A stretch of 33,664 nucleotides of DNA from an uncultured virus (IMG/VR IMGVR_UViG_3300028591_000145). Taxonomy: Duplodnaviria > Heunggongvirae > Uroviricota > Caudoviricetes. The DNA lies in IMG/VR virus record IMGVR_UViG_3300028591_000145; one strand, 5' to 3'. Shown here piece by piece: positions 2-33,308 of this stretch (positions within the stretch are counted from its first letter, which is position 1; each line of letters starts with the position of its first letter). Under the pieces are notes generated by a model that searched no databases, had not been told where the DNA came from, and was given only the letters and a program-made list of their open reading frames with translations. The position numbers were made by a program, and so were the translations under genes.

Positions 2-1222
2 AAACAGTGCGTCATCATTTTTTCCTTCTTTTCTCAAGTCTTCATACAGGTTATTCGGGATCACATCATTATAGTACCAATCCACAAATTCTGAAGTATA
101 GCAATTAGGTATCCGTATACATGGAAATGAAAACCATGCCCAATTAAACTGTACTACTCCTATCATATTTACATTTCCACCGTCATTTACCTGATTACTA
201 AATCCTGCTGCAAGTCCTGTATTATGTTCCTCCGTCAATTCTTTAAATCGACTGCTAATTACAACATCATCTTGTAAATGCCATATGCCACCTAAGTAGT
301 TCTGATTTTTAGCAACCCATTTCATACTTTTTACGAACGAATCAAGATTGCCTACACCTTCTTTATCTTGCCATACAATGATATTATCTTTTGAAATACC
401 TTGGTCAATCATTGAAGGAACTAGGTACTTATTTACATACCACATGCGTTTCTTACATGCATGAATCATGTATGCCATACTTAACCGTGTCTTTTTTGAT
501 TTTAAGAAATTTTTTGACTTGCGATATTTCGCTATTTGTTCAAACGTATATTCTGAGTACTCTACCACTTCTGGCTGTTCCCACCATGTTTTGATCGCCG
601 CATAATGGATTACTTTTGGATCACCTTGAAATTCCGTAAATAATGTACCATTATATGTTCCCGGCATTTCATATACATGACCTTGACAAAACTCCGTAAA
701 TGCATCTTGTTCAATCCACGGATGTTGGTTCGTGTTTAATTCATCTATTACACGGTCAACCATACCATCACGTAATTTCTTTAGGTTAAACAGGCACACA
801 CCGATGTTGTAATATATAAAACCATTTTTGCAACGGTCAGGTTCTTTTGATGCTGAAAAATAGTAATCATCTATCGGCAAATCCCATATATCTGAAATAT
901 CTTGATCCACAATGGTATCTACATCTAATGATAGGATTCTGTCTAAATCTGGGAATAACTTCGAATACGTTGCCCTCATCATAGACATATAAGTAAAATG
1001 AGAGTGCATATTTGCACCATTAGGTTGAAAAAATGTCTGACCGGATACATTTATGCACTCTATCTCATTGGGAAGTGTATGAGGGAAAATATCATCTTCT
1101 ATAAGGAAGTATATTTTTTCTACATCTGAGTTAAGAAGCAGCGATTTAGCTGCTGTCACCATATATGGGTATAAATTACGTGTTCCGCTATAAGCAGCAA
1201 CTTTACTGAGTCTCTTCTTCAT
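2..1222 (-). CDS. Two-domain glycosyltransferase (N-terminal GT8-like plus a second putative GT-A domain), truncated at the window edge
   Basis: Not in the ORF track because it has no stop in the window. Manual translation from ATG 1222: MKKRLSKVAAYSGTRNLY...DRILSLDVDTIVDQDISDIWDL...YNIGVCLFNL...WIEQDAF...VIHYA (GT8 hallmarks: DxD, NxGV, EQD, IHY). It continues in frame into MAYMIHACKKRMWYV...WHLQDDVVIS. Confidence 0.8.
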   Translation of the reverse strand, partial: MKKRLSKVAAYSGTRNLYPYMVTAAKSLLLNSDVEKIYFLIEDDIFPHTLPNEIECINVSGQTFFQPNGANMHSHFTYMSMMRATYSKLFPDLDRILSLDVDTIVDQDISDIWDLPIDDYYFSASKEPDRCKNGFIYYNIGVCLFNLKKLRDGMVDRVIDELNTNQHPWIEQDAFTEFCQGHVYEMPGTYNGTLFTEFQGDPKVIHYAAIKTWWEQPEVVEYSEYTFEQIAKYRKSKNFLKSKKTRLSMAYMIHACKKRMWYVNKYLVPSMIDQGISKDNIIVWQDKEGVGNLDSFVKSMKWVAKNQNYLGGIWHLQDDVVISSRFKELTEEHNTGLAAGFSNQVNDGGNVNMIGVVQFNWAWFSFPCIRIPNCYTSEFVDWYYNDVIPNNLYEDLRKEGKNDDALF

Positions 1223-1547
1223 ATTCCATTTTTTCTTGTTCAGCCATTTTCTTTAGCTGTCTTATTAACTTTCGCTGCGCCCTACGTTTTAAATCCGCAT
1301 AAGCCATAAAGCTTATTTTGTAATGTTCAGGTGATTCAGCTTCTTCCCCGGTCATATAATGAGTACCTATAACTCTTCTATGAAGATGTTTCAGATGGAA
1401 AGAACCGAAATCCTTTATCTGGACATTTTTTTCTTTCATGATTGAATCACCAATCACCTTGAAAATATTTGTGAATATCTTTTCTACCGTTTCATGGTCA
1501 CAACCAGTATTCTTTTCAACGGCTTTTATTATGTTTTTCTCTGTCAT
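1203..1547 (-). CDS. HU/IHF-family DNA-binding protein, divergent paralogue with C-terminal extension
   Basis: VQIKDFGSF...HYMTGE...KISF matches the HU/IHF fold pattern. Confidence 0.8.
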   Translation of the reverse strand: MTEKNIIKAVEKNTGCDHETVEKIFTNIFKVIGDSIMKEKNVQIKDFGSFHLKHLHRRVIGTHYMTGEEAESPEHYKISFMAYADLKRRAQRKLIRQLKKMAEQEKMEYEEETQ

Positions 1548-1574
1548 ATCTAATCTCCGTCAAAATAAAATAAA

Positions 1575-1661
1575 TGGGTGAACGTGGAATCGAACCACGG
1601 GTGTTTCTCATGTAACAGATTTACAGTCTGCCGTAACTCAACCAACAGTTACCTTTCACCC
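1575..1661 (-). tRNA. tRNA-Tyr(GUA), no encoded CCA
   Basis: Acceptor GGGTGAA/TTCACCC; anticodon arm GCAGA-CTGTAAA-TCTGT; long variable arm; T arm CGTGG-TTCGATT-CCACG. Confidence 0.92.
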
Positions 1662-1664
1662 ATA

Positions 1665-2221
1665 TCTGCAAGGAGCCTTCACTCTACAGATGTATTATCG
1701 CCGTAATATTCAGTCACCGTTCTAACAAGTCTGAGCCTATGAATCGTCATCCATAAACTTCTTGCCAGTCTACAGCCTAACTGTACTGTAGAAAATAACG
1801 GATGGAATCGGTTCTCCACAACTAAATTCACGCAACATTCAGATTTTCATCATCTTTTAATGTTAAAATGTCGATTTGCGCTACTCGCTCTTTGCTCCGG
1901 TCTTATAGAATCATTTCTGACTCGCAACGACATAAATGGCTTGTTTGGTGTTCCGTATAGAGCCACATCAGTACCACCTGACGCAGATATACGGTTATTC
2001 TCCACAGGAGCGTCTATTTCACCACCGACCGTTCACAAAAACCTTTTACTCACGATAACCAACTGCGCTTACGCTTGAAGTTAACTGCTCCATGTTCCAG
2101 TCTTCCCGGTTTCGTTACCTTATACCGGATGTCTCACCATGCCAATATCTCGACATTTCAGGCACTTCATCCGCGCAACCCATGCATGTTGTCTACACAA
2201 TCTTCACATGGTTCTTACAGA
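1665..2221 (-). ncRNA. ROOL-like large structured ncRNA (~557 nt)
   Basis: Gap between two tRNAs with no convincing ORF. Ends pair (5' TCTGTAAG with 3' CTTGCAGA) and there are internal hairpins. Blocks GGTGAAATAGACGC..GAGAATA, GAGTAGCGC, CTGAATGTTGCGTGAA, GCTCAGAC, GTGACTGAA and AGAGTGAAG appear in the order I recall for ROOL RNAs. Size and phage/tRNA context fit ROOL. Not verified by covariance search. Confidence 0.8.
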
Positions 2222-2245
2222 AATTCCGCGAAAAATCACGGATAA

Positions 2246-2317: not shown

Positions 2318-2669
2318 ATATTGCTCATAGGTGCGTAAAGGAGTTAAACCTACGAGCAAGTACGACACACAGGGATTTGCGCCCCATTTACATCCACATC
2401 TATGCAGTGCGCCCTAATCAGCAGAGGTAGGGTTGTGGCATTTTTTGTCGCGGTCTGCACATGTCATTCTGCAAAATGCTACTCGCACTTAGCATTCGCA
2501 TAAACTCCGTCAAGTTTTGAAACTCTTAACAGGACTCCTCGTCCTAACGGAGCGGAGAAATCTTCAATGTCAAAGGCAAAAAACAACCTCATCATGGAAG
2601 ATGCATCCTGCCCGTGGGCATGACCCCACGGTACATCCCTTTCGGATTACAGGCAAATCAAGGAGTATG

Positions 2670-2945
2670 TTAAACGGCATCCTTCAGAAGTTTGCCGGGT
2701 TTGAACCTGACTACGGTTCTGGTTGGAATCGTAATTTCCTCACCTGTGCTTGGATTACGGCCTTTCCTCTCAGGCTTTTCTTTAACTGAGAATGTTCCGA
2801 ATCCTGTAAGCTGTACTGTGTCACCATCTTCAAGTGACTCCTGAATGAAGTCAAGCACAACTCTGAGCGAAGCTGCTGCTTCAATCTGCTTCAGTCCTAC
2901 TCTATCAACAAGAGCGGCTACAATGTCTGTTTTTGTCTGAACCAT
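2670..2945 (-). CDS. hup: DNA-binding protein HU
   Basis: VQLTGFGTFSVKEKPERKGRNPSTGEEITIP...VRFKPGKLLKDAV is canonical HU. Confidence 0.95.
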   Translation of the reverse strand: MVQTKTDIVAALVDRVGLKQIEAAASLRVVLDFIQESLEDGDTVQLTGFGTFSVKEKPERKGRNPSTGEEITIPTRTVVRFKPGKLLKDAV

Positions 2946-8412: not shown

Positions 8413-8940
8413 TTATGCTATCATTTCGTAAATATCGCCATTCTCTGTCTTGTAAAAACTACCTTCTATCATTATGTCGCGCCCATATGCTTCGAAATCG
8501 AAATACGGTTCGACATTTTCCGGAATGTCAATACAGCCGCATTCCTTAGCGTAATAATAACCTACTGCAAATTCATCACTCTCGAAGCCTTCAGGCGTTG
8601 TAACATAAACAACATCGTCTAAGTGTTCCCTGATTTCTTCGGATTCTGTATATCCAAAATATTTTAGAACTTCTACCTTTTCCGGAACGTCTTCGATGAT
8701 TTCAGCAAGGTGGTTAAGTTCTTCAAGATTGTCATACTCGCCGATTCTTAAACCCGGAACATCGGATTCATAATCCGTAATAAAATATTCTTCGTAATAG
8801 TTCCCGTTCTCGTCTGGCTCTTCGCTGATTCCGATCCGCTCAAAAACCGGGCTAAAATCATCACAGGGAAGTTCTACCCATTCCCCAATTAAAGCACCTT
8901 CGTTGTACTTTCCAAGATTCGTCAAATAAATTCTTAACAT
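8413..8940 (-). CDS. ardA: Antirestriction protein ArdA (DNA mimic, type I RM inhibitor)
   Basis: IYLTNLGKYNEGALIGEWVELP...YFITDYE...YFDFEAYGRD; highly acidic. Confidence 0.95.
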   Translation of the reverse strand: MLRIYLTNLGKYNEGALIGEWVELPCDDFSPVFERIGISEEPDENGNYYEEYFITDYESDVPGLRIGEYDNLEELNHLAEIIEDVPEKVEVLKYFGYTESEEIREHLDDVVYVTTPEGFESDEFAVGYYYAKECGCIDIPENVEPYFDFEAYGRDIMIEGSFYKTENGDIYEMIA

Positions 8941-9998: not shown

Positions 9999-10373
9999 AT
10001 GAGAATCAGCCACAATACACGTAATTTAGCTGTTGCCGCGTTCCGGGCTTTTGGTACGGATTCAGAACAGGCAGCAGAACAGGCAGCGGAAGAAGCGGAA
10101 AACGCTTTACAAGCAGATTATGAAATCCTGTATAATTTGCTCGTGTCTGGGCAGGTGGATTACTTCTACCATGAAAGTGAACCGTCAAAAATCGGTCGGT
10201 CGCTGGTAGAAGTCTGGACGAGATCGAGTAGGCAGGGTGTGTCTGTTCAAAGATCGACTTTTCTAAAAGTTCCCGGTGGAGAACTGGTAGCACTTTCGCA
10301 TCATAACATTATGACGTTTTCCGATATGGTGAAAGATTCCATTCCGGATAATGTCGATATCATAGCAGCATAA
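9999..10373 (+). CDS. Hypothetical protein
   Basis: 124 aa; AAGGGGG RBS. Confidence 0.75.
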   Translation: MRISHNTRNLAVAAFRAFGTDSEQAAEQAAEEAENALQADYEILYNLLVSGQVDYFYHESEPSKIGRSLVEVWTRSSRQGVSVQRSTFLKVPGGELVALSHHNIMTFSDMVKDSIPDNVDIIAA

Positions 10374-10384
10374 AGGGGGTTTTT

Positions 10385-10579
10385 ATGTATAAGTATTTTA
10401 CTATCTTGCGTCCAGTGTCAATCGGCACGTTCCCGAAAGAGGGGTTTGTCGATTTCGTGAACTTTGATAAAAGACGTTATGTTCCTGAAATCGACCATGA
10501 TGCGTGGGGATATCTTCTGTATAACCGGGAACTGTCAGAAAAAGAGATACACAATTATGATTTTATGCCTATGCCGTAA
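10385..10579 (+). CDS. DarA-related (defence-against-restriction) small domain protein
   Basis: YF..LRPVSIGTFPK...FD.R....AWGYLLYNRELS.KEI..YD pattern recalled from DarA C-terminal / polyvalent-protein domains. Confidence 0.6.
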   Translation: MYKYFTILRPVSIGTFPKEGFVDFVNFDKRRYVPEIDHDAWGYLLYNRELSEKEIHNYDFMPMP

Positions 10580-10647
10580 CACAAAAATCAGTGTTCCCGG
10601 TTGAAATATACCGGGGATATTCACACAAATAAAAATGGGGGTTTACT

Positions 10648-10902
10648 ATGTTTTCAAAAAAAGAGTTATACAACGCTTTAAAAAATGAGGGTGAGGTTAT
10701 TGTGTTGTCAAATGAACAGGAACCGGGTTACTTTTCCACAGTCTTTTGGTTCAGTGACCGGGTAAACGATAAAATATCATGCTTTTGTCGTTCAATGGGT
10801 ATATTACCACGTGATGAAATGAACATTGATAGCCTGTATGAGTTGCTTTTACGGCTCTTTGAAGAAGGATTTCATGTTTTACTACGTGGTATGGATCACT
10901 GA
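10648..10902 (+). CDS. Hypothetical protein
   Basis: 84 aa; GGGGG RBS. Confidence 0.7.
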   Translation: MFSKKELYNALKNEGEVIVLSNEQEPGYFSTVFWFSDRVNDKISCFCRSMGILPRDEMNIDSLYELLLRLFEEGFHVLLRGMDH

Positions 10903-10920
10903 ACAAAACAGGATTCTGTT

Positions 10921-10998
10921 TGTCAAGTCTGGATGCCGTGGTTATGCCCGGATGGACGCACTTGTATAAGTGTTCACGGTTCGATTCCGTGATTGACA
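10921..10998 (+). ncRNA. tRNA-like cloverleaf / pseudo-tRNA
   Basis: TGTCAA/TTGACA acceptor; TCTGG/CCGGA; GCACTT-GTAT-AAGTGT; perfect T arm CACGG-TTCGATT-CCGTG. Confidence 0.65.
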
Positions 10999-11034
10999 TT
11001 TCTGGAAATAATATAGAAGGGAGATAAAAATATT

Positions 11035-11283
11035 ATGACATATCACGATGATTGCATTGTCAGAAAAGTACCAAAGGAAATCCGCAAGCGCACACAGGAG
11101 AATATGGATAAGTATTGTCTTTGCTTATATGATGCATTTAATGAAGCAGTACGGCACTATAACAAGTGTAGTAAGGAACTGTGGGCGGCGTTTATGAAAT
11201 CCGATTATAGATTGTATATTCCATCCGCTTATAATCCTGAGTATCTGGATTTTAGCAAGTATCCACTAAAGTATAGTATTTAA
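11035..11283 (+). CDS. Hypothetical protein
   Basis: 82 aa; AAGGGAG RBS. Confidence 0.7.
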   Translation: MTYHDDCIVRKVPKEIRKRTQENMDKYCLCLYDAFNEAVRHYNKCSKELWAAFMKSDYRLYIPSAYNPEYLDFSKYPLKYSI

Positions 11284-11302
11284 GAAAGTGAGGACGTGAG
11301 AT

Positions 11303-11503
11303 ATGACAAGAGAACGAATTGAGGGCATTCTGTCTGATGCTGTAGCCAGTATTTTTAATGATGCAGGAGTAAACACAGAACAGGTTATTGATACATCTTT
11401 GTGGGCTGGAATTGATCTTGATTCAGCATTCATTTATCATGTTGACGTTCTGTATAAATACGTCAATGCGGCGATTGATGCGGAAAGTGAGGTAAGAACA
11501 TGA
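11303..11503 (+). CDS. Hypothetical acidic protein
   Basis: 66 aa; GTGAGG RBS. Confidence 0.7.
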   Translation: MTRERIEGILSDAVASIFNDAGVNTEQVIDTSLWAGIDLDSAFIYHVDVLYKYVNAAIDAESEVRT

Positions 11504-11646
11504 CTTATAAGCAGTTCACGGAAAAATTGAGCGCATACTTTTCACCGTCTGAAATCTGCATGATAGATAAATATTATACAGATGTTGCGGTGGATACGGG
11601 ATTATGCAGGTGGATCAATCAAAAATCCGGATTTGTTAATCCGTGA
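11500..11646 (+). CDS. Small hypothetical protein (48 aa)
   Basis: GAGGT RBS; ATGA overlap with the previous gene. Confidence 0.6.
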   Translation: MTYKQFTEKLSAYFSPSEICMIDKYYTDVAVDTGLCRWINQKSGFVNP

Positions 11647-11686
11647 TATTGCAACTGGTGTATTCTAAGGAAAGGGAGATTGAATC

Positions 11687-11851
11687 ATGGTAAAATGGGA
11701 TATATTGAGGCCGGGTGATGTAGTACAGGATATGAACGGGATACAGTTAACCGTGACCGTCTGCTATGAGGGGCATGTAGTTGCGGAGTGCCCGGGTGAT
11801 CTGGTGAGGATCAGAGAAAACAATCAGCATAATTACAGGGTTATTAAATAA
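11687..11851 (+). CDS. Small hypothetical protein (54 aa)
   Basis: MVKWDILRPGDVVQD...; AAGGGAG RBS. Confidence 0.6.
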   Translation: MVKWDILRPGDVVQDMNGIQLTVTVCYEGHVVAECPGDLVRIRENNQHNYRVIK

Positions 11852-11861
11852 CTGTTGGCAT

Positions 11862-12143
11862 AAATTCGAGTCCGGGTATCCGGGGAAAGTGAGGGGGAAA
11901 ATGAGATATTTTGTTGTTAATGATTCAATGATTCCGCTATATGGACAACCTGAAAATGGATACACTAAAATGCAAGCCATTAGTAGAGCGCAAAGAGAAG
12001 TAGAGCAGTGCGCTAAAATGTTTAATATTTCATATTTTGAATGTGCATCATGGTTTCATATTCTTGATAGTAAAATGCATTACTGCGTTGAACTAGATAC
12101 AGCTATATAAAATTCGAGTCCGGGTATCCGGGGAAAGTGAGGG
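11862..12143 (+). repeat. 34-bp perfect direct repeat flanking one gene
   Basis: AAATTCGAGTCCGGGTATCCGGGGAAAGTGAGGG at 11862-11895 and 12110-12143; 16-bp partial copy at 14273-14288. Confidence 0.9.
11901..12110 (+). CDS. Hypothetical protein
   Basis: ATG follows the GAGGGGG RBS within the repeat. Confidence 0.7.
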   Translation: MRYFVVNDSMIPLYGQPENGYTKMQAISRAQREVEQCAKMFNISYFECASWFHILDSKMHYCVELDTAI

Positions 12144-12150
12144 CTATATA

Positions 12151-12372
12151 ATGCAGATAATGACGGGAACAAAAAGAGAAATAGCAATTCAGACATGGGA
12201 AGAACAGATTGAAAAGTATATGAAGCGTTTGAATGATTCTATGGAATGCTTCAGGAGATTTCATGAAGCTGATGATCTCACGCACATGTTAGAAGATATT
12301 GAGAAGTTGACCGAAAATGTTACATATTGTCGCAAGGCTATTGAACACATGGACAATCTGGGGATTAAATAA
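12151..12372 (+). CDS. Hypothetical helical protein
   Basis: 73 aa; RBS within the repeat. Confidence 0.7.
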   Translation: MQIMTGTKREIAIQTWEEQIEKYMKRLNDSMECFRRFHEADDLTHMLEDIEKLTENVTYCRKAIEHMDNLGIK

Positions 12373-12403
12373 TAATCCCCATTATAAATATGAGGGCTAC
12401 ACC

Positions 12404-12571
12404 ATGAAATGTAAAGATTGTGTATACTGTAAAGAATACTATCACAGCTACTATAATATCACAGCAAGGTGTACATGGTTCTGTAGAGATACAGCTTCTA
12501 ATAATGAAGGCTGCGACTATATTAAACCGAAACACAACAATACAGAAGAAAAAAAGAGGGTTACTAGATGA
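12404..12571 (+). CDS. Small Cys-rich (CxxCxxC) protein
   Basis: MKCKDCVYC...; GAGG RBS. Confidence 0.6.
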   Translation: MKCKDCVYCKEYYHSYYNITARCTWFCRDTASNNEGCDYIKPKHNNTEEKKRVTR

Positions 12572-12816
12572 GAACAAAGATAATCGAGGTAAATGTAAGC
12601 ACAGGCTATAAAGACTGCAATCATTCCGGGCATTATGCCGTATTATACGATGACACAGCTATAGCAAATCCATACATGGTGTACAGCTATTGGACTGGGT
12701 TTTCTGATCACGGAATTACAAAACATAGGACGCAACTACAGAAATACGGGGATTACGCAAGCGCAATGTATTTTCTGTATCAGGTGACCACAAATCAAAT
12801 CAGCATAGGAAAGTGA
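12568..12816 (+). CDS. Hypothetical protein
   Basis: 82 aa; translationally coupled to the previous ORF. Confidence 0.7.
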   Translation: MRTKIIEVNVSTGYKDCNHSGHYAVLYDDTAIANPYMVYSYWTGFSDHGITKHRTQLQKYGDYASAMYFLYQVTTNQISIGK

Positions 12817-12827
12817 GGGCTACCGGG

Positions 12828-13100
12828 ATGAAAAATACATACACAATCAGCTTAACAGGCATTGACGCTTATATCTGGGATGTACAGAAATACATCATGG
12901 ATAAGGTAGGAGTTGACGCAAGCAGCAGACTCATATATCCTTTAAAGCGGTATATCAACACAGGACGGGCAAGCAATGCGTTTCTGCGGAAGTTGTTCGA
13001 CATTGCACCATATCGAATAGGACGCATTCTAATGAAATCCGGTTCCGATGATGATGTGATCCGCTCAATTAAAATGGCTATTAAATTTGAGACTTACTAA
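12828..13100 (+). CDS. Hypothetical protein
   Basis: ATG after a GAGG RBS. Confidence 0.7.
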   Translation: MKNTYTISLTGIDAYIWDVQKYIMDKVGVDASSRLIYPLKRYINTGRASNAFLRKLFDIAPYRIGRILMKSGSDDDVIRSIKMAIKFETY

Positions 13101-13134
13101 AACCGATCCCTACCCGGTGAAAGAAGGTGATAAC

Positions 13135-13335
13135 ATGAAGGTGAAAACATTTCTGTCCGGTAACGGCAAGCCCTATACCATAACATTCTGGGATTCATGC
13201 CGTGAATTTAAATTGAACGACTTAGAAATGGTTAACTGGCATACCTTTGCAGAGGGTGATGATCTGTACGGTTTCAATCCGGAACCTATAGGAACAGTTG
13301 TCAAGATAACAGGTAATAAGATATTGATTGCATAG
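13135..13335 (+). CDS. Hypothetical protein
   Basis: AAGGTGA RBS before ATG 13135. Confidence 0.65.
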   Translation: MKVKTFLSGNGKPYTITFWDSCREFKLNDLEMVNWHTFAEGDDLYGFNPEPIGTVVKITGNKILIA

Positions 13336-13351
13336 AAGTGAGGGCTGCACC

Positions 13352-13687
13352 ATGATAGTTGAAACAAAATACCGAATATATGAAAATGTATTCCTGAGAG
13401 TTGAACGATATATGGCTGACAACAGCTTATGTATACTACTGTATAACCGGGATTATGCCGTAATAGCTAAATTAACCACCTGTCTGGATGACAAGAACCT
13501 GAAGGATAGCGAAGCGTATATTGATACGAATAACTGCCCGTGGGCTATTGATTTCATCCGCGAATACAATTTAGGTGTACTGACGGGAAAGAAAAGGGTT
13601 TCCGGATACTGTACATATCCGGTTGTCAGATTCAATATGGATGAAATCGAAAAACACGTGAAGCATTCGAGGGCTACCATTGATTAA
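13352..13687 (+). CDS. DUF4313-like protein
   Basis: AYIDTNNCPWAIDFI..YNLG..TG....SGYCTYPVVRF pattern. Confidence 0.75.
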   Translation: MIVETKYRIYENVFLRVERYMADNSLCILLYNRDYAVIAKLTTCLDDKNLKDSEAYIDTNNCPWAIDFIREYNLGVLTGKKRVSGYCTYPVVRFNMDEIEKHVKHSRATID

Positions 13688-13764
13688 ATCCCTAGACATG
13701 ATATAATAATAAAAGAAACTGTAAGATAGCATTTTTGCCGATTTTATCTAAGAAGGAGAAATCT

Positions 13765-13965
13765 ATGAGTGATTTAAGTGTTTTAAGGACAATAGCAACA
13801 CACATTAACCCGAATACTGGAATGACGGTTCCTGATAGAACAATCTTGTTTCTGGACAGCCGCATCGAAGAAGATGCAGACAACTACTATGCTGTCAGAG
13901 CATGGCATACTGACGGGAATGATCGGAAGATATACCCTAAGTCAGAATGGACTGCTGAATATTGA
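13765..13965 (+). CDS. Hypothetical protein
   Basis: AAGGAG RBS before ATG 13765. Confidence 0.7.
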   Translation: MSDLSVLRTIATHINPNTGMTVPDRTILFLDSRIEEDADNYYAVRAWHTDGNDRKIYPKSEWTAEY

Positions 13966-14027
13966 AGGCTACCCGGTTGATCTAAAATCTCTAAAATACT
14001 CTAAAAAATTCTAAAAAGGAGTGTATT

Positions 14028-14258
14028 ATGACTAGCACAGAATATAGCAACGCTATTCATGGTATCCTTGCAAGTGGCAGAGGTTATCAAGCAATCATTG
14101 ATTTGACGGAATACTTAAAAACTCTAAACGACAATGTAGATGCTGCCGTAAGAGAATACAAGTCCGAGCGACAAGCAGTCCGTAAAATCTGTAATAATCC
14201 TAACGTGACACAGAAAGAAAAACTGAGTGCCGTTATGAGCATGATGGGTGAAAAATAA
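14028..14258 (+). CDS. Hypothetical protein
   Basis: 76 aa; AAGGAG RBS. Confidence 0.7.
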   Translation: MTSTEYSNAIHGILASGRGYQAIIDLTEYLKTLNDNVDAAVREYKSERQAVRKICNNPNVTQKEKLSAVMSMMGEK

Positions 14259-14302
14259 ATTGCGCTCGTATTTTCGAGTCCGGGTATCAAAAGGAGAAAA
14301 AT

Positions 14303-14662
14303 ATGGGATACGAAAGCAGACTTTATGTTGTTGAAAAAGGCAGCGTCAAAGGCTTAAGTGGTAAGATTTATGGAATGCACGTAGCTGCATTTGAAATGGG
14401 ATGCGTATATGAGATGGTAGAGAAGATTAAGAAATATCCGCATACCGATACATTCTTCTTCGCTGATGACGGAAACACTGAAGTCACAAGCGATGCATAC
14501 GGAGAACCGTTAACTGAAATTCCCGTAAAGGATATGGCAAACATTATCCGTGAATTATCAAAACATGATGTATACAGGAGATATAAACCTGTACTGGCAT
14601 TCCTTGACACAATAGATGAATCAGAATGGCATAATATAGTTGTGTTACATTATGGACACTGA
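14303..14662 (+). CDS. Hypothetical phage protein
   Basis: 119 aa MGYESRLYVV...VLHYGH; AAGGAG RBS. Confidence 0.75.
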   Translation: MGYESRLYVVEKGSVKGLSGKIYGMHVAAFEMGCVYEMVEKIKKYPHTDTFFFADDGNTEVTSDAYGEPLTEIPVKDMANIIRELSKHDVYRRYKPVLAFLDTIDESEWHNIVVLHYGH

Positions 14663-15003: not shown

Positions 15004-15834
15004 TCAATCGCAAGAAATATATTTGCTTTGATACTTGTTTTCTGAATGATAAGCGTGCGAAGCGATATTAGCACTTTTACCAATATCTATCACGATATGC
15101 GGTTTTAATGATTCTCTTATTGTAATTAAATCATCATCAGACAAGTTAAACCATTCACATGATCCTTCTCTTAATCGTTTACTGGCATATAAATCATGCA
15201 AAAACTTTTCAAGCAAATCCATATTGCTGACATACTCAATGATTACATATTCAGGCTCTTCCGGTAATTTTGTATATTCTCCAAGGCGTCTACAGTCTTT
15301 TGACTTCCCGATTTTATAATACCCCATGCATTTCATCACGTAAATATAACCGGGCTTACCTATTGGATTGTTTTTAGATGGCACTATATTAACTTTCTTA
15401 TCGTAATTATTTTCATATACTTTGTCGGTAAAGTCCACACCGTCAAGTAATCTGTATTTTGATACCTTGACTGAAGAGATTTTGCCTGACTTAGCTTTGT
15501 AATGATCTTTTTCTACAATAATAAGCCCTACATCTTCAAGTTCTTTCTTTGCTCTTTTTACAGATGATTCACTCATTCCTGCTTGCACTGCTAGATAAGA
15601 ATTCTCACAAGTAAAAGCATTGTAATCATTCATGATCCCTAATTTCCTAGCATTTTCTTCTGAATTATTTTCACCTGTAAACCGATTTTCAAGATGTTTT
15701 AATGTCATATAAAGCCATTTTGCGTTTACCGAGAGACTGTGATACTTTTTCATTTTATCAGCAGTATCGCCCTCATAATGCTTTAACCAAAAAATGTGTG
15801 CAACCTGCATAAAATCACGACTTAGTTTTTTCAT
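15004..15834 (-). CDS. Winged-HTH plus T5orf172/MUG113 (GIY-YIG-like) fusion protein
   Basis: N-terminal LSVNAKWLY...LAVQAGMSESSVKRAKKELEDVGLI; C-terminal GYIYVM...YKIGKS...LEKFLH..Y...R...EWFNL. Confidence 0.75.
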   Translation of the reverse strand: MKKLSRDFMQVAHIFWLKHYEGDTADKMKKYHSLSVNAKWLYMTLKHLENRFTGENNSEENARKLGIMNDYNAFTCENSYLAVQAGMSESSVKRAKKELEDVGLIIVEKDHYKAKSGKISSVKVSKYRLLDGVDFTDKVYENNYDKKVNIVPSKNNPIGKPGYIYVMKCMGYYKIGKSKDCRRLGEYTKLPEEPEYVIIEYVSNMDLLEKFLHDLYASKRLREGSCEWFNLSDDDLITIRESLKPHIVIDIGKSANIASHAYHSENKYQSKYISCD

Positions 15835-17034: not shown

Positions 17035-17529
17035 TCAGCTTATTTTTACAGCATATTGATTCGATGAAGCAAGTTTAACACCTAACGTACTGTCATATAC
17101 TTCTTCTGAATCTGGAACATACCGTCCGAATTTAACAATGATATTCTTATACTTTCTCAGGATATTTATATATGTCTGTATTTCATTTGAGTTATACCCT
17201 GTATAGATAACAATATCATCATCACGCTGGTATTTAATACGGAGTTCCGCGATAAATGAAAGCAATTCATCGAATGAATCAAATGGCTCTAAACCTTGAC
17301 AGACTATTGCGTGAGATATTTTATTGTTTATATACCGCTCGCACAGTTTATCTATATTTACCTCAATATCGGGCTGTTTTGCAATACTGGAATTCTGGCA
17401 TACTGGCTGACCACAATCATGTTCACACTTGAATGTACAGGTTGGAAAAACAAGTGTCATTGACGGACGCTTGTAGTTTACAAAGTCCTCGTCTATTATG
17501 CCTTTGAGAGTTATTGTATATTTTCCCAT
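17035..17529 (-). CDS. nrdG: Anaerobic ribonucleotide reductase activating enzyme (radical SAM)
   Basis: CTFKCEHDC...CQN, GLEPF, IYTGY, KFGRY, SSNQY; adjacent to nrdD. Confidence 0.88.
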   Translation of the reverse strand: MGKYTITLKGIIDEDFVNYKRPSMTLVFPTCTFKCEHDCGQPVCQNSSIAKQPDIEVNIDKLCERYINNKISHAIVCQGLEPFDSFDELLSFIAELRIKYQRDDDIVIYTGYNSNEIQTYINILRKYKNIIVKFGRYVPDSEEVYDSTLGVKLASSNQYAVKIS

Positions 17530-20486
17530 TGTCTTAACTTATATTCTTCTCTTCTCTTATCTGACCATGAACTGATTCGTGTCGCAAATCCAACTATCCT
17601 TGTATACTCGCAATCTACAGGTTCTCCGCACTCAGGACATATCTCACCATAAAATGCATGGTTATGTTTGCAAGCCTGAATTCTTGTGTTGAATGCAAAG
17701 TATGTAACACCATGATCTGCAATATAATTAACCATTTCCCACGCTTTATCAAAAGTGTCAAACGGCGAGTCGATATTTACATGGAGAATGCTGCCACCAT
17801 TACAATATCCGTCAAATTCAGAAGCAATCCTAATTCTTTCCTGTAATGTTGTTTTAATCCCGATTGGAATAAATTGATTACCATATAGCGGAAGGTCATA
17901 AATATCTGCATCTGGATAGAAATATTTGTCTTTCTGCATCAATTTATCTGCTGCTGATTCACCCGGTATTTGTTCAGTATTGATTTGATAATCACAATGA
18001 TTCTTTTCAATAAATTCGTCTGCGGCTTCACGCATTGTTTCAAAAATTTTCTTACCGAACTTAGATGCGTTTTCTGTATAATATATATTTCCGAATTCAT
18101 CTTTTTTAGTGTATCCGAGATGTTTCATTGATTCATAAATTCCAATAAACCCACATGTATTATACAAATATTGGAAATCAATCAATCCGTGTGTAAAATT
18201 AGGAAGAATACCTTTTTCAACGTTGCGTTTAATTATATGCCTAACAGCATGAAGCGCACACAAGATAATCGTTACGCGATGTTTTAGTTCTTTTAAATAT
18301 TCTTCTTCAGAATTCGTATCTAAAGCAATCCTTGCAAGATTTATAGTGTTTACTTTAACTGAACCAACTTTAAGGGCTGTGCCACCTATACTGTTAAAAT
18401 AGCCAAGATTTTTAATATCTGACTTTAACCTGCAATTATGTGTAATAACGCCGTTCGGAAGTGTAAAGTATGGATCATTTTCATCTTTCATTTCAAAGCA
18501 ATACACATAATCTTCATCGGTTTCGTATTTCTCGATATTGATAATTTTAAAGAATGTTGAATTATTCCGTTTAATATATACATCCTTTTGATTTCTTCTA
18601 TTACACGGTTCATACCATCTAATGCAGTACACAGGATAGTTTCTATTAAACGACTGCCCTCTTATAATTACTTCACCATCACCAGTTCTATCGGAAACAT
18701 TTATAATTGTGTTAATCCCAAGTGATGTGAATAACGCTTCAATATCACCAACCAATTTTTCCGAAGTCGTATAAATTCTATTTGAATTTCCACCGTCAGT
18801 TAAATAATATCCATCTATAATGCCTTTTCTAAACTCAACTGACTGAAGAATACAATCGAGATTTAATCTCTTTTCAAAACAATATTTACCAGATACAAAT
18901 TTTCTAATAAAGGCTGTGACTTTATTGCTTCGCAAACTTAACGGATAAACATTGTTGTATGTTTTCCCTAATGTGAATGTTTTTAATTCACCTATCTGTT
19001 GACATGCGATTTTTAGCAAGTCTTTTGACGCATTATATTTTTCTTCATTTAATGACAAATCAATCTGTGTGGAATATATAGATTCTTCATGACACATAGA
19101 ACCATCACCAAGATACATACCAATAAGAAGACCTTGTTCATATGTTAAAGAATCATCTACTTCTTTTACGGAATATAGTATACTGTTATTGAACATTAAA
19201 TAATCATTTAATGTCAAATCAGCAGTTACTACTTCACCGCGCTGAGTCATATTTATATGGTTATCTGTAACTAATATCTCTTTATTATTTGATGTTACAA
19301 TTCTATATAAAGGTCGTTTAGGCAATCTTATTACTTTCCCCTTTACCCAACTACCATTATTAAAGATTGTGAAATTGCGTTTAAAACCGTCATAAGGGGC
19401 TTCATATAGTTCTTTTAATGACATAAAATTCACACCGTCAGACGATTTTGATAATGTCATTTGTGAACCATCAAAACAACAATTAGATAATGACGTAACA
19501 GAAGAATCCACAAAAATGTTTGAATCATTCCATTGCATATTATGCTCAATAGCCCATCTTGCAAATTCTTCATCAACAAATTTACCATCTTTTCGTAAAA
19601 GAGATATTGTATTCACCGGAAATGTGAACATGTTAACTTTACGAATTTCAGCCATTACCTGCATATACCATTTTTGGAAATTGATAATGTCTTCCTCGTA
19701 GTCAATCATGAAACTTCCATCAGGGAAAACGCCGCCACCGAATAACGCTTCGAAATATTCATGATCAAATATAGAACTATTTACAAAGGCGGATTGGCTC
19801 CCGTCGCGTGCATACGGTTGATTTTCTGCAAAAATTAGACGTTGAAAATTCTGCTTTGCATAATATTCTTCATTATGACTTGTCTTAATTCCCATATAGT
19901 CATTGTCAACATCTTGTTTCCAGAAATAATACATATACGGAATTAAATTCGGCAAGCCAACTGCGCCGCTTGTTCTATTACATGCAAAACTAATAAACTC
20001 TTTTACGAAATCTACAAATGTAGTAAGATGTTTTGCTATCTGCGGATTCTGACCGTCAATAAAATACAACCCCTTTTCCGCTAAATCTGTTAAATCATAC
20101 GCAAAACAATATGATTTCATTGATGATGAAGGTGGATCATGCAAGTAACTTTCACCCACCCAATCCATTTCTAGCCATTCATTAGCAATGTCAATCCCGA
20201 ACATCTTGCTAATTTCATAGTGTATCTTGTTATATGCGAGTAATTTTGAATGTGGCTTTGGCATTTCTCTTTCAAGAGTAACTACATCTTTATTTGATAC
20301 ATTAGAACTAGAGTCTATGCTTGCGTCTGCCACAACATCCTTGTCTATGAAATTGTCGATAAAATCTGTGTAGCTAAGTTGCCCCTCACTGAATCCGTTC
20401 AGTCTGGCAATCCCTTCACCGTACTTTTTCTGCAATTCATTGTATTTTTCGGTAAAGGCTTCTTTCAAGTTAATTGTTATTTCCAT
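17511..20486 (-). CDS. nrdD: Class III anaerobic ribonucleoside-triphosphate reductase, intein-containing
   Basis: YLHD, YCF, SGAVG, FTFPV, SNC|CRL, GSVKVNTINLARIA, PGES, CPECG, YTRIVGF glycyl-radical loop. Confidence 0.95.
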   Translation of the reverse strand: MEITINLKEAFTEKYNELQKKYGEGIARLNGFSEGQLSYTDFIDNFIDKDVVADASIDSSSNVSNKDVVTLEREMPKPHSKLLAYNKIHYEISKMFGIDIANEWLEMDWVGESYLHDPPSSSMKSYCFAYDLTDLAEKGLYFIDGQNPQIAKHLTTFVDFVKEFISFACNRTSGAVGLPNLIPYMYYFWKQDVDNDYMGIKTSHNEEYYAKQNFQRLIFAENQPYARDGSQSAFVNSSIFDHEYFEALFGGGVFPDGSFMIDYEEDIINFQKWYMQVMAEIRKVNMFTFPVNTISLLRKDGKFVDEEFARWAIEHNMQWNDSNIFVDSSVTSLSNCCFDGSQMTLSKSSDGVNFMSLKELYEAPYDGFKRNFTIFNNGSWVKGKVIRLPKRPLYRIVTSNNKEILVTDNHINMTQRGEVVTADLTLNDYLMFNNSILYSVKEVDDSLTYEQGLLIGMYLGDGSMCHEESIYSTQIDLSLNEEKYNASKDLLKIACQQIGELKTFTLGKTYNNVYPLSLRSNKVTAFIRKFVSGKYCFEKRLNLDCILQSVEFRKGIIDGYYLTDGGNSNRIYTTSEKLVGDIEALFTSLGINTIINVSDRTGDGEVIIRGQSFNRNYPVYCIRWYEPCNRRNQKDVYIKRNNSTFFKIINIEKYETDEDYVYCFEMKDENDPYFTLPNGVITHNCRLKSDIKNLGYFNSIGGTALKVGSVKVNTINLARIALDTNSEEEYLKELKHRVTIILCALHAVRHIIKRNVEKGILPNFTHGLIDFQYLYNTCGFIGIYESMKHLGYTKKDEFGNIYYTENASKFGKKIFETMREAADEFIEKNHCDYQINTEQIPGESAADKLMQKDKYFYPDADIYDLPLYGNQFIPIGIKTTLQERIRIASEFDGYCNGGSILHVNIDSPFDTFDKAWEMVNYIADHGVTYFAFNTRIQACKHNHAFYGEICPECGEPVDCEYTRIVGFATRISSWSDKRREEYKLRQWENIQ
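18435..19478 (-). mobile_element. Intein (348 aa) with LAGLIDADG homing endonuclease
   Basis: Starts CFDGSQ; block B VTDNH; LIGMYLGDG and IIDGYYLTDG motifs; ends VYCFE...NGVITHN followed by extein Cys. Confidence 0.95.
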
Positions 20487-31979: not shown

Positions 31980-32654
31980 TCAATGTTTTTCATTAAATGT
32001 TTCTTCTTTCCGCTGCATATATTGCTCTTTTGAAATTTCTATAAAACCATCTTTAGTTTCCGTAAAATATCTGTCAATATTTTCTTGTTTTCCTTCTGGT
32101 GTAATCATATATAAATATGCTTTATGATCAAATTCTCCTATCGCATTTGGGTGTAGATAATAAAAATCTTCTGTATATACCTTATATGGTTTATTATGGG
32201 GTAAATATGGCATAGTTATAGGGTATTTTTCATAAACTAAATTATTTGCTTTGAAATCATGCCAACATGTATTATTTTTTACATCTGTGCAAATGACATA
32301 GTCATTATCGGTATATTTTATATTATTATCTTTATCAATTTCCTTAAACAGCGAACTCATTCTATTGTTTTGATATACTTTCGTTCCATCCAAATCTTTT
32401 GTATAAGAATATTCCCACACATCAGACGTATCTTCTATCGGTGTAAGACATTTTCCATCTATAAGGCGATTTAATATATTTTTCGTAAACGCAATACTCA
32501 TTCCGCTATGATTATCTTCACAAAGGCTTTTAAATGCTTTTAATGCTGAATCATAGCAAGCGCATCCATAATCCCACTCATCTTCTTGATTGTCTACACG
32601 TTCTATATTTTTAGCTATTTCAATTTCTCTTCTAGCCCATTCATACATTCTCAT
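31980..32654 (-). CDS. Conserved hypothetical phage protein
   Basis: 224 aa; HSGMS...LTPIED motif; GGAG RBS. Confidence 0.75.
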   Translation of the reverse strand: MRMYEWARREIEIAKNIERVDNQEDEWDYGCACYDSALKAFKSLCEDNHSGMSIAFTKNILNRLIDGKCLTPIEDTSDVWEYSYTKDLDGTKVYQNNRMSSLFKEIDKDNNIKYTDNDYVICTDVKNNTCWHDFKANNLVYEKYPITMPYLPHNKPYKVYTEDFYYLHPNAIGEFDHKAYLYMITPEGKQENIDRYFTETKDGFIEISKEQYMQRKEETFNEKH

Positions 32655-32708: not shown

Positions 32709-33308
32709 TTATTGATATGACCATTCATATTCATTTTTTATAGGCCATTCAAATCCAAAATCAGTACGCTTGATTTTACACATCGGTTCATTGTTTAACC
32801 AAAATACAATACCTTCGATTCCGTTAGAATTTAGATATTCTTTAATTCCATTAAATGTACGTTCAGGATGAATTATGTCATTCCCGTGAGGAATCAATAC
32901 ATCATATGCCATATCATATGGATTTCCATTAAAGTGTTTCCCAACTGCTTCATATGTGCCTTTTGTTAAAACTATATGACAATATCTTCGCGTAAAATCG
33001 TATGCTGCCCAAAACCATTTATCCGCAGAATTGTCTCTGCCACACTTTACCCAATGAGGATGATGACCTGTTATCGGGTCTGGATCGCAACAAGGTATTG
33101 CACCTTCTGGTGGCTTTTTACCTCTTTTTGCATCATATCGCCTATATAATTCTCCATTTATAATCGCACAACAAGCACCATCCCATTTTATTGTTGCATC
33201 TCCTTTACCTTCCAGTACCCATTCCATACCGGGATAGACTTCATCTGTTATGCCAACGATTTTATGATCGTTATATATTCGTTGGAACAATGTCGGTATC
33301 TTCTTCAT
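32709..33308 (-). CDS. Putative ATP-dependent RNA ligase (DUF5565 / RLIG1-like)
   Basis: MKKIPTLF, motif I KWDG, motif III YEAVG, motif IV EGIVF, motif V KIKR.DFG. Confidence 0.75.
   Translation of the reverse strand: MKKIPTLFQRIYNDHKIVGITDEVYPGMEWVLEGKGDATIKWDGACCAIINGELYRRYDAKRGKKPPEGAIPCCDPDPITGHHPHWVKCGRDNSADKWFWAAYDFTRRYCHIVLTKGTYEAVGKHFNGNPYDMAYDVLIPHGNDIIHPERTFNGIKEYLNSNGIEGIVFWLNNEPMCKIKRTDFGFEWPIKNEYEWSYQ

Follow-up and report, generated by a model that had tools for sequence, protein, structure and literature searches.

Which RNA fills the space between two neighbouring transfer RNA (tRNA) genes of an uncultured ruminant-gut phage, and how would its two ends be made? The question is raised by the window, as the whole analysed stretch of 33,664 nucleotides (nt) is called here (uncultured virus, IMG/VR record IMGVR_UViG_3300028591_000145), in which a long segment of the minus strand is enclosed by a tRNA with the anticodon CAU, tRNA(CAU), and a tRNA-Tyr. 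An earlier note, made from the sequence alone, had described the segment as a ROOL-like giant RNA released by tRNA processing. ROOL RNAs have been described by Weinberg et al. (2017; PMC5737381) and, as a long non-coding RNA of L. salivarius, by Cousin et al. (2017; PMC5643018), and are treated in a structural study (PMC12286853) and a review (PMC12990946). The window encodes a ROOL RNA of the Rfam family RF03087 at 1662-2226 (minus strand), and the best explanation of the locus, with a probability of about 0.6, is that this RNA is co-transcribed with the two tRNAs, released by the tRNA-maturation enzymes of the host and assembled into a cage.

The RF03087 covariance model matches the minus strand at 1653-2235 with 268.7 bits (E 1.3e-60; gathering score 99.1), and the match is full-length and not truncated, covering model positions 1-574 of 574. 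In the search with the Rfam ROOL and GOLLD models that the earlier note had proposed for this strand, only ROOL was significant; GOLLD gave no Rfam match, either at the gathering score in the window or at E <= 1 over 1300-2800. No other family competed at E <= 1 over 1300-2800 besides the two tRNAs and one sub-threshold match of 19.4 bits (2209-2314), which overlaps tRNA(CAU) and the ROOL 5' end and is taken as chance. Even in the model's imperfect register, 117 of the 155 model pairs are standard in the window's RNA. The longest open reading frames (ORFs) overlapping 1662-2226 on either strand encode 50-72 amino acids (aa) and overlap one another, with none exceeding 72 aa.

Homologous RNAs were collected by fishing IMG/VR with two exact conserved ROOL motifs, which returned at least 117 stretches; 80 of these at least 117 were taken with 1.5-kb flanks, while loci L081-L117 (300-nt flanks) were used for a scan for embedded tRNAs only. 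ROOL was detected at the gathering score in 66 of the 80 listed loci (17, 17, 16 and 16 per batch), with 191-382 bits. The other 14 were excluded before all counts and are treated as chance matches to the fishing pattern; none of them matched an Rfam family at E <= 0.01 or resembled the ROOL set by BLAST, and in several a reading frame without stops runs across the motif match. At 95% identity the 66 ROOLs form 40 clusters, whose representatives were used in the survey. The window's ROOL belongs to none of the 40, its best BLAST match among those listed being 74% over 96 nt.

A MAFFT alignment was made of the window's ROOL and 39 representatives, with L070 excluded, its ROOL being cut at the contig end. 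RNAalifold analysis of these 40 ROOLs gave 100 consensus pairs, of which 91, P1 (the terminal helix) included, are supported by one or more compensatory double changes, with a covariation term of -25.5 kcal/mol, in an alignment that is not structure-fitted and among related sequences, so that the counts are of alignment cells and not of independent events. The alignment has 33 invariant columns, where those of UCUGAAUG and GCUCAGACUU are invariant by construction because both motifs constitute the fishing pattern; other invariant columns, for instance those in AAUAGACG, in GUAGC and in the GAUA loop, owe nothing to that pattern and occur in the window as well. Close relatives from four sequencing runs differ from the window's ROOL at 17 sites, of which five are unpaired, ten keep their pair (mostly via G.U) and two break it. 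By our own estimate, ten of twelve would be modestly unusual if chance alone preserved the pair in roughly every second case. In one of these relatives (run X3), a 21-nt insertion near 1779 lies inside the apical hairpin 1791-1770, a stem that is variable in the family alignment, and the hairpin with a GAAG loop that adjoins P1 stays paired at both of its substituted sites, 1675 and 1681.

A model match above threshold together with covariation among homologues indicates that the RNA is a ROOL, as the earlier note had suspected. It agrees with the family in every defining feature testable here, namely score, fold, covariation, motifs, non-coding character and context. The length of about 565-583 nt is close to the family mean of 581, and the P1-closed multi-junction fold, the conserved motifs, the A/U-rich variable linker, the rumen or gut origin and the surroundings of phage genes and tRNAs are likewise those of ROOL. 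It differs by a divergent sequence, by a short P1 of 8-11 base pairs (bp) and by its setting, a minimal cassette with one tRNA on each side between two HU genes instead of a large tRNA island. This divergence from the other fetched ROOLs could be held to speak for a chance or mis-assigned match, the segment being in fact an RNase P RNA, a GOLLD, a group II intron or a coding stretch, but the probability of this is negligible, considering a score of 268.7 bits against 99.1 over the whole model, the lack of any rival family at E <= 1 over the region besides the 19.4-bit match, the presence of family motifs outside the fishing pattern, the covarying helices and a longest ORF of only 72 aa. The window's ROOL is thus an additional member of a known family in a typical context, and no new family is proposed.

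The predicted mature RNA (1662-2226, about 565 nt) is delimited from the Rfam match, the minimum free energy (MFE) fold, covariation and RNA-library contigs. The MFE of 2226-1662 is -168.8 kcal/mol, compared with -145.5 +/- 6.4 kcal/mol for 100 dinucleotide shuffles (z -3.62, none as good). The free-energy fold is closed by pairing of 2221-2214 with 1672-1665, which reproduces exactly the terminal helix with ends at 1665 and 2221 that had been proposed from the letters, and the length of about 557 nt given with it extends to about 565. Beyond one U.U mismatch P1 continues to A2224-U1662, so that its 5' arm (2214-2224) and 3' arm (1662-1672) form 10 of 11 standard pairs and its last base, U1662, is position -1 of tRNA-Tyr. 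In the model register only six of 16 P1 pairs are standard; similarly, a second long-range helix has 8/10 standard pairs after a shift of one register and 3/10 before. The overlap of 9 nt between the model match and tRNA-Tyr arises from the longer consensus P1 of the model, which is set one register off and pushed into the flanking bases. A short A/U-rich linker at 1850-1875 (model positions ~355-393, 16 deleted) lies immediately 5' of the conserved UCUGAAUG motif and is equivalent to the non-conserved linker of the family.

On its 3' side the RNA meets a class II tRNA-Tyr (GUA) at 1575-1661 on the minus strand (Rfam tRNA 40.7 bits; ARAGORN 1574-1662), which has a cloverleaf as its MFE structure. 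By the Rfam model and the cloverleaf fold, its +1 base is G1661, its discriminator is A1575 and CCA is not encoded. The presumed RNase P site falls between U1662 and G1661, with a U at -1, and is separated from P1 by 0-3 nt. The earlier note had rightly placed ROOL and both tRNAs on the minus strand, as the Rfam and ARAGORN calls show, and its claim that the ROOL helix abuts tRNA-Tyr stands; the distance of 3 nt which it gave holds for the MFE helix and shrinks to 0 nt with the extended one. In a consensus scan, no promoter- or terminator-like site was detected at the ROOL/tRNA-Tyr junction or between tRNA-Tyr and the next gene. With 0-3 nt before tRNA-Tyr, this junction at least must be cut from a common transcript. 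Moreover, RNase P must cut tRNA-Tyr if a usable tRNA is to result, which would in any case fix the ROOL 3' end at 0-3 nt from P1.

The arrangement was found to recur. The survey covered the 40 representative loci, with merged Rfam and ARAGORN tRNA calls and with ROOL ends taken as the covariance-model ends. At least one tRNA occurs within ~1-1.4 kb in 35 of them, and all 219 tRNA calls, the window's two included, are co-oriented with ROOL. In 9/40 loci the start of a tRNA falls between -5 and +10 nt relative to the ROOL 3' end, against 0.79 expected under uniform placement (Poisson P 1.5e-7), an enrichment of about 11-fold. At the ROOL 5' end, a tRNA ends within 10 nt in 5/40 loci against 0.69 expected (P 7e-4), and within 50 nt a tRNA is present downstream at 16 and upstream at seven of the 40. 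According to a duplex search at the abutting loci, 0-8 nt separate the last P1 pair from the tRNA that follows, and 1-4 nt lie between the preceding tRNA and the first P1 pair, which three times comes directly after an encoded CCA. The tRNA species involved vary, with Thr, Phe and Trp upstream and Arg, Met, Gln and Leu downstream. Seven of the abutting clusters appear, by eye, to form a related group, within which the upstream tRNA is Thr, Phe or none and the downstream one Arg or Met; this indicates that abutment has been kept while the tRNAs were exchanged. In the same arrays, 24 of 70 tRNA-tRNA gaps are 10 nt or less (median 72), and the ROOL-tRNA gaps resemble this tight mode, ROOL behaving like one more unit of the array.

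The association itself has been reported. ROOL, like GOLLD, has been found near tRNAs and in prophages, which co-transcription could explain (Weinberg et al., 2017; PMC5737381), and it has been placed "often near tRNA islands" or "within tRNA arrays" (PMC12286853; PMC12990946). Neither the family nor its proximity to tRNAs is new, and what is added here is a quantified, recurrent near-zero spacing; in the literature searched, we found no paper on the formation of ROOL ends, nor one which states or tests such a spacing.

On the 5' side, tRNA(CAU) lies at 2246-2317 on the minus strand (Rfam tRNA 60 bits; ARAGORN 2245-2318). According to ARAGORN, it and tRNA-Tyr are the only tRNAs of the 33.7-kb window. 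It has a U1.U72 mismatch and, as CCA is not encoded, it is a presumed RNase Z substrate. The C11:G24 pair and the anticodon stem presumably argue against an initiator, which leaves elongator Met and lysidine-modified Ile2 as candidate identities. The distance from tRNA(CAU) to P1 is 21 nt and is mostly occupied by an 18-nt hairpin of 7 bp (2225-2242, minus strand; -10.3 kcal/mol, z -4.67). This spacer hairpin is probably a real structure, since a G-to-A change in close relatives (G2229>A) improves one pair by converting U.G to U-A; it might serve in attenuation, halt an exonuclease or insulate the folding of its neighbours. Upstream, a leader hairpin of 12 bp (2321-2359, minus strand; -16.1 kcal/mol, z -5.19) ends 3 nt before the +1 base of tRNA(CAU), so that a helix, about 3 nt and a tRNA follow one another at this junction as at that of ROOL and tRNA-Tyr. 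A candidate sigma-70-like promoter, weak and with 9 of 12 matches (ATGACA, a 16-nt spacer, AAAAAT), was noted at 2440-2467 on the minus strand, in a scan in which such sites were no more numerous than in shuffles. The intergenic leader as a whole (2319-2669, minus strand, 351 nt) is the most G+C-rich part of the left end of the window, folds better than shuffles (z -2.73, 0/100 as good), holds a GC-rich 7-bp hairpin near 2631-2612 and has no Rfam family match.

Contigs from RNA libraries bear on both the transcript and its ends. A sheep metatranscriptome (X19) contains exact contigs for 1869-2045 and 2068-2218, and a bovine metatranscriptome (X20) an exact contig for 2129-2226 at depth 74.5. 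The latter is followed by 21 further letters, which we take to be the start of an Illumina adapter; the adapter right after 2226 suggests that the dominant X20 fragments ended there, 2 nt before P1, while a contig from the DNA run X3 continues past 2226 to 2500. In a further RNA library (X21), a 408-nt contig of a relative, with seven differences, spans 1897-2302 and thus bridges tRNA(CAU) and ROOL. The only piece within 1662-1868 is 42 nt long (1725-1766, four differences) and tRNA-Tyr is uncovered, both of which are uninformative on absence. Many short pieces at 1986-2030 have unrelated flanks, which indicates that these libraries also contain other ROOLs that have the conserved core. Taken together, the contigs give a weak hint of a ROOL 5' end near 2218-2226, close to the position 2221 predicted earlier and compatible with a processed co-transcript.

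These data also bear on whether ROOL might instead be an independent transcription unit, in which the hairpin 2242-2225 would end the tRNA(CAU) transcript and ROOL, with a promoter of its own, would merely share an RNA island with the tRNAs. The spacer hairpin does score as terminator-like (seven pairs, four of them G-C) and is stable, the proximity of tRNAs may have trivial causes (Weinberg et al., 2017; PMC5737381), and the L. salivarius ROOL has been reported as a discrete 520-nt RNA, with no flanking tRNA described in the accessible sections (PMC5643018). Nonetheless, the U tract that follows the hairpin is poor (AUUUCUGU) and doubles as the 5' arm of P1, the consensus scan detected no promoter-like site between 2318 and 2226, the contig from X21 bridges tRNA(CAU) and ROOL, and abutment is enriched roughly 11-fold over uniform placement. 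An independent unit is considered unlikely.

Release of ROOL by RNase P and RNase Z is a proposal well supported by the anatomy of the locus, and is regarded as somewhat more probable than not. It is favoured because of the spacing of 0-3 nt and the abutment in other ROOL lineages with different tRNAs, because the ROOL/tRNA-Tyr junction leaves no room for a terminator or promoter, and because metatranscriptome contigs weakly suggest an RNA end at 2218-2226. In this mechanism, a single transcript would begin upstream of tRNA(CAU), possibly from the weak promoter-like site at 2467-2440, and would comprise the leader, tRNA(CAU), ROOL, tRNA-Tyr and an HU-like mRNA. RNase P would cut the 5' ends of both tRNAs, and after its cut between 1662 and 1661 the ROOL RNA would end directly with P1 on its 3' side and should thereby be protected from 3' exonucleases. 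RNase Z would cut tRNA(CAU) after its discriminator A2246, thereby freeing the 5' side of ROOL, and the 20-nt remainder, spacer hairpin included, would be trimmed to about G2226, 2 nt before P1. RNase J1, a 5'-to-3' exonuclease of Bacillota, is a candidate for this trimming. Once the 3' end of tRNA-Tyr is processed, the HU-like mRNA would begin with 27 nt of leader that include GGAG. Clamped by P1, the ROOL RNA would then fold and self-assemble into a hollow homo-oligomeric cage.

Cage formation by the window's ROOL is assumed from family membership and is considered likely. Octameric cages have been described for the env-120 and E. faecalis ROOLs and a hexamer for that of L. salivarius (PMC12286853; PMC12990946), and in cryo-electron microscopy the non-conserved linker is disordered and lies inside the cage (PMC12286853). 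A self-complementary hairpin loop, as in the published kissing loop between shells, was sought by eye in the window's RNA and was not identified.

At one locus, the place of this linker is taken by a tRNA. The ROOL of L006 (1073-1668, plus strand; 326.5 bits over the full model) has a complete tRNA-Phe(GAA) at 1427-1500 in place of the variable linker, detected with 53.1 bits by the Rfam tRNA model and also by ARAGORN, and ending exactly where the UCUGAAUG motif starts. This is the only one of at least 117 loci with an embedded tRNA, and its ROOL would split into two pieces if that tRNA were processed. Embedded tRNAs have been described for GOLLD and, in the accessible sections of the same sources, not for ROOL (PMC12286853; PMC12990946). 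In the linker of the L018 ROOL (1430-2022, minus strand), as in its near-identical cluster mate L049, inspection by eye picked out a GGTTCGACTCC motif resembling a T arm and perhaps a hairpin of anticodon type; the L018 linker has no match to the Rfam tRNA model at E <= 0.1, and either the decay of an embedded tRNA or a chance resemblance could explain the motif.

The tRNA-Phe of L006 lends some interest to the possibility that the functional molecule is the uncut tRNA-ROOL-tRNA chimera, in which the tRNAs at P1 would be displayed or delivered by the cage. P1 would indeed hold both tRNAs of the window at one point (tRNA-Tyr at 0-3 nt, tRNA(CAU) at 21 nt), and cleavage might, on general grounds, be slowed by a helix that reaches right up to the RNase P site. 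A comparable role has been the subject of published speculation on GOLLD-linked and GOLLD-embedded tRNAs (PMC12286853; PMC12990946). However, the X20 contig ends at 2226 into the adapter and not into tRNA(CAU), both tRNAs look ordinary and decodable, with charging requiring free ends, and ROOLs without a flanking tRNA occur in 5/40 clusters. The chimera is thus judged quite unlikely.

Several points weigh against co-transcription followed by release through the tRNA enzymes. No tRNA is present in the ~1-1.4 kb flanks of 5/40 loci, and none lies within 10 nt downstream in 31/40 clusters; abutment is not universal, so ROOL ends can form in other ways. Seven of the nine abutting clusters appear related by eye, which leaves about three independent lineages plus the window, and the sample is biased by the two fishing motifs and by the use of listed matches only. 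The four runs were seen as contigs only, from which starts, ends, strand, level and transcription are not provable, RNA libraries can contain DNA, and two RNA contigs end 8 nt apart (2218 and 2226) and not at one place. The terminator-like spacer hairpin means that tRNA(CAU) and ROOL might be separate transcripts. The P1 of 8-11 bp is shorter than the 14-24 bp of most relatives, and a helix abutting an RNase P site could hinder binding of the leader by bacterial RNase P. Finally, cage formation is assumed despite the divergence of the sequence (74% over 96 nt in the best BLAST match).

The 31 clusters without an abutting downstream tRNA are also what can be said for excision of ROOL by other enzymes, such as RNase III acting on P1, RNase Y, RNase E or ribozymes, with the flanking tRNAs as mere passengers. 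Against this, no ribozyme family was matched in the window, nor was one matched at the gathering score beside any of the 66 ROOLs, and a P1 of 8-11 bp is short for RNase III as generally understood. In the literature searched, we also found no paper linking ROOL with the theta ribozyme. Excision by such enzymes is held to be very unlikely.

Maturation by tRNA enzymes would allow a broader and more tentative proposal, to which we would give slightly less than even odds: ROOL genes would be slots in phage tRNA operons, with P1 placed such that tRNA processing releases the RNA without a dedicated nuclease, the flanking tRNAs would be interchangeable and selected as punctuation, and the cage would have a tRNA-related job. 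If true, ROOL output would be coupled one-to-one to phage tRNA output. Together with the embedded tRNA of L006, this proposal points to a role for the cage such as the storage or protection of phage tRNAs in the course of infection.

Among known systems, GOLLD is close in kind, being a large ornate RNA of phages and prophages found near tRNA arrays and forming an RNA-only cage (PMC12286853; PMC12990946); the GOLLD env-38, for instance, lies downstream of a tRNA-Met (PMC12286853). It differs in that its sequence and fold are unrelated to those of ROOL, its length exceeds 800 nt and some of its members, as described in these sources, embed tRNAs.

For the processing itself, the comparison is with tRNA punctuation. 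Such punctuation of polycistronic transcripts is found in animal mitochondria, and in bacteria co-transcripts of mRNA with tRNA and of rRNA with tRNA are cut by RNase P and RNase Z. The window's cassette is alike in having a non-tRNA product between tRNAs of the same strand, with minimal spacers, the ends of which would be defined by tRNA end-processing, and its HU-like mRNA would likewise receive a 5' end 27 nt before the start codon. The cassette differs in that its product is large, structured and predicted to self-assemble, and has a terminal helix of its own abutting the presumed cut site. Natural RNAs known to form cages without protein are very rare, ROOL being one, and the window, as a compact cassette of hairpin, tRNA, hairpin, ROOL, tRNA and mRNA, makes the maturation of ROOL directly testable. 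If confirmed, the proposed mechanism would tell structural biologists which ends suit native-like constructs and would tie ROOL production to phage tRNA operons. Such operons have increasingly been linked to counter-defence.

The surroundings of the cassette are those of a phage. The window carries replication, nucleotide-metabolism and anti-defence genes and comes from an uncultured ruminant-gut phage; the stretch is complete in one sheep-gut metagenome run, from which it may derive, with relatives in bovine and sheep gut runs of many studies. On the minus strand, the order is an HU gene, the leader, tRNA(CAU), the spacer hairpin, ROOL, tRNA-Tyr, a second HU gene and a family-8 glycosyltransferase. 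The upstream gene for an HU-family DNA-binding protein lies at 2670-2945 (minus strand; PF00216, 105.9 bits) and the second, divergent one at 1203-1547 (minus strand; PF00216, 61 bits). The ATG of the latter is found 27 nt past the tRNA-Tyr 3' end and is preceded by a GGAG ribosome-binding site, with no terminator in between. HU genes also occur within ~1 kb of ROOL in two of the 40 other representatives (L005:677-1084 and L001:2191-2553, both minus strand), and a family-8 glycosyltransferase is found near ROOL both in the window (2-1222) and in L023; these numbers are too small for an association of either gene with ROOL to be called.

A Pfam scan for a constant protein partner, restricted to the 117 same-strand ORFs among 172 found, yielded no family in the flanks of more than four of the 40 loci, the commonest being DUF6275 (four loci), YunG-like (three) and HU (two). 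In related phages, the islands of ROOL and tRNAs also contain further structured RNAs, namely skipping-rope RNA (RF02924), RAGATH-33 (RF03102) and phage tmRNA (RF00023), the sites being L009:835-977 (minus strand), L080:2069-2208 (plus), L053:2904-3016 (plus), L001:678-1094 (minus) and L066:1818-2244 (plus). RtcB (L030) and an Acb2/Tad1 hairpin protein (L010) were noted in further ROOL flanks.

A blastn search of 1500-2400 against GenBank phages returned only a 47-nt tRNA-like match to one cyanophage, and for the DnaN clamp of the window the matches among GenBank phages were all to "Bacteriophage sp." entries from uncultured gut phages, with no identity above 45%. No syntenic relatives were confirmed by a search in IMG/VR with the HU-like protein (12 pattern matches). 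Besides the two HU genes and DnaN, the sliding clamp, the gene content comprises an intein-bearing NrdD, NrdG, a ThyX-like protein, ArdA, a Tad3-like protein and an RNA ligase. The anaerobic ribonucleotide reductase NrdD (991 aa; 17511-20486, minus strand) has its intein at residues 353-684 (PF14890), with a LAGLIDADG-type homing endonuclease region near residues 552-613 (PF14528), and is followed by an NrdG-like activase gene (17035-17529). The anti-restriction protein ArdA (8413-8940; 123.7 bits), a Tad3-like Thoeris inhibitor domain (31980-32654; 95.5 bits) and an RNA ligase (32709-33308; phrog_14301, 201 bits) are all encoded on the minus strand and represent functions of counter-defence and of the RNA-repair type. 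A protein of 276 aa (15004-15834, minus strand) combines an HTH/DnaD-like N-terminal part with a T5orf172/MUG113 domain, which is GIY-YIG-related, and its gene is situated at the switch between the small ORFs of unknown function on the plus strand (~9999-14662) and the replication genes on the minus strand.

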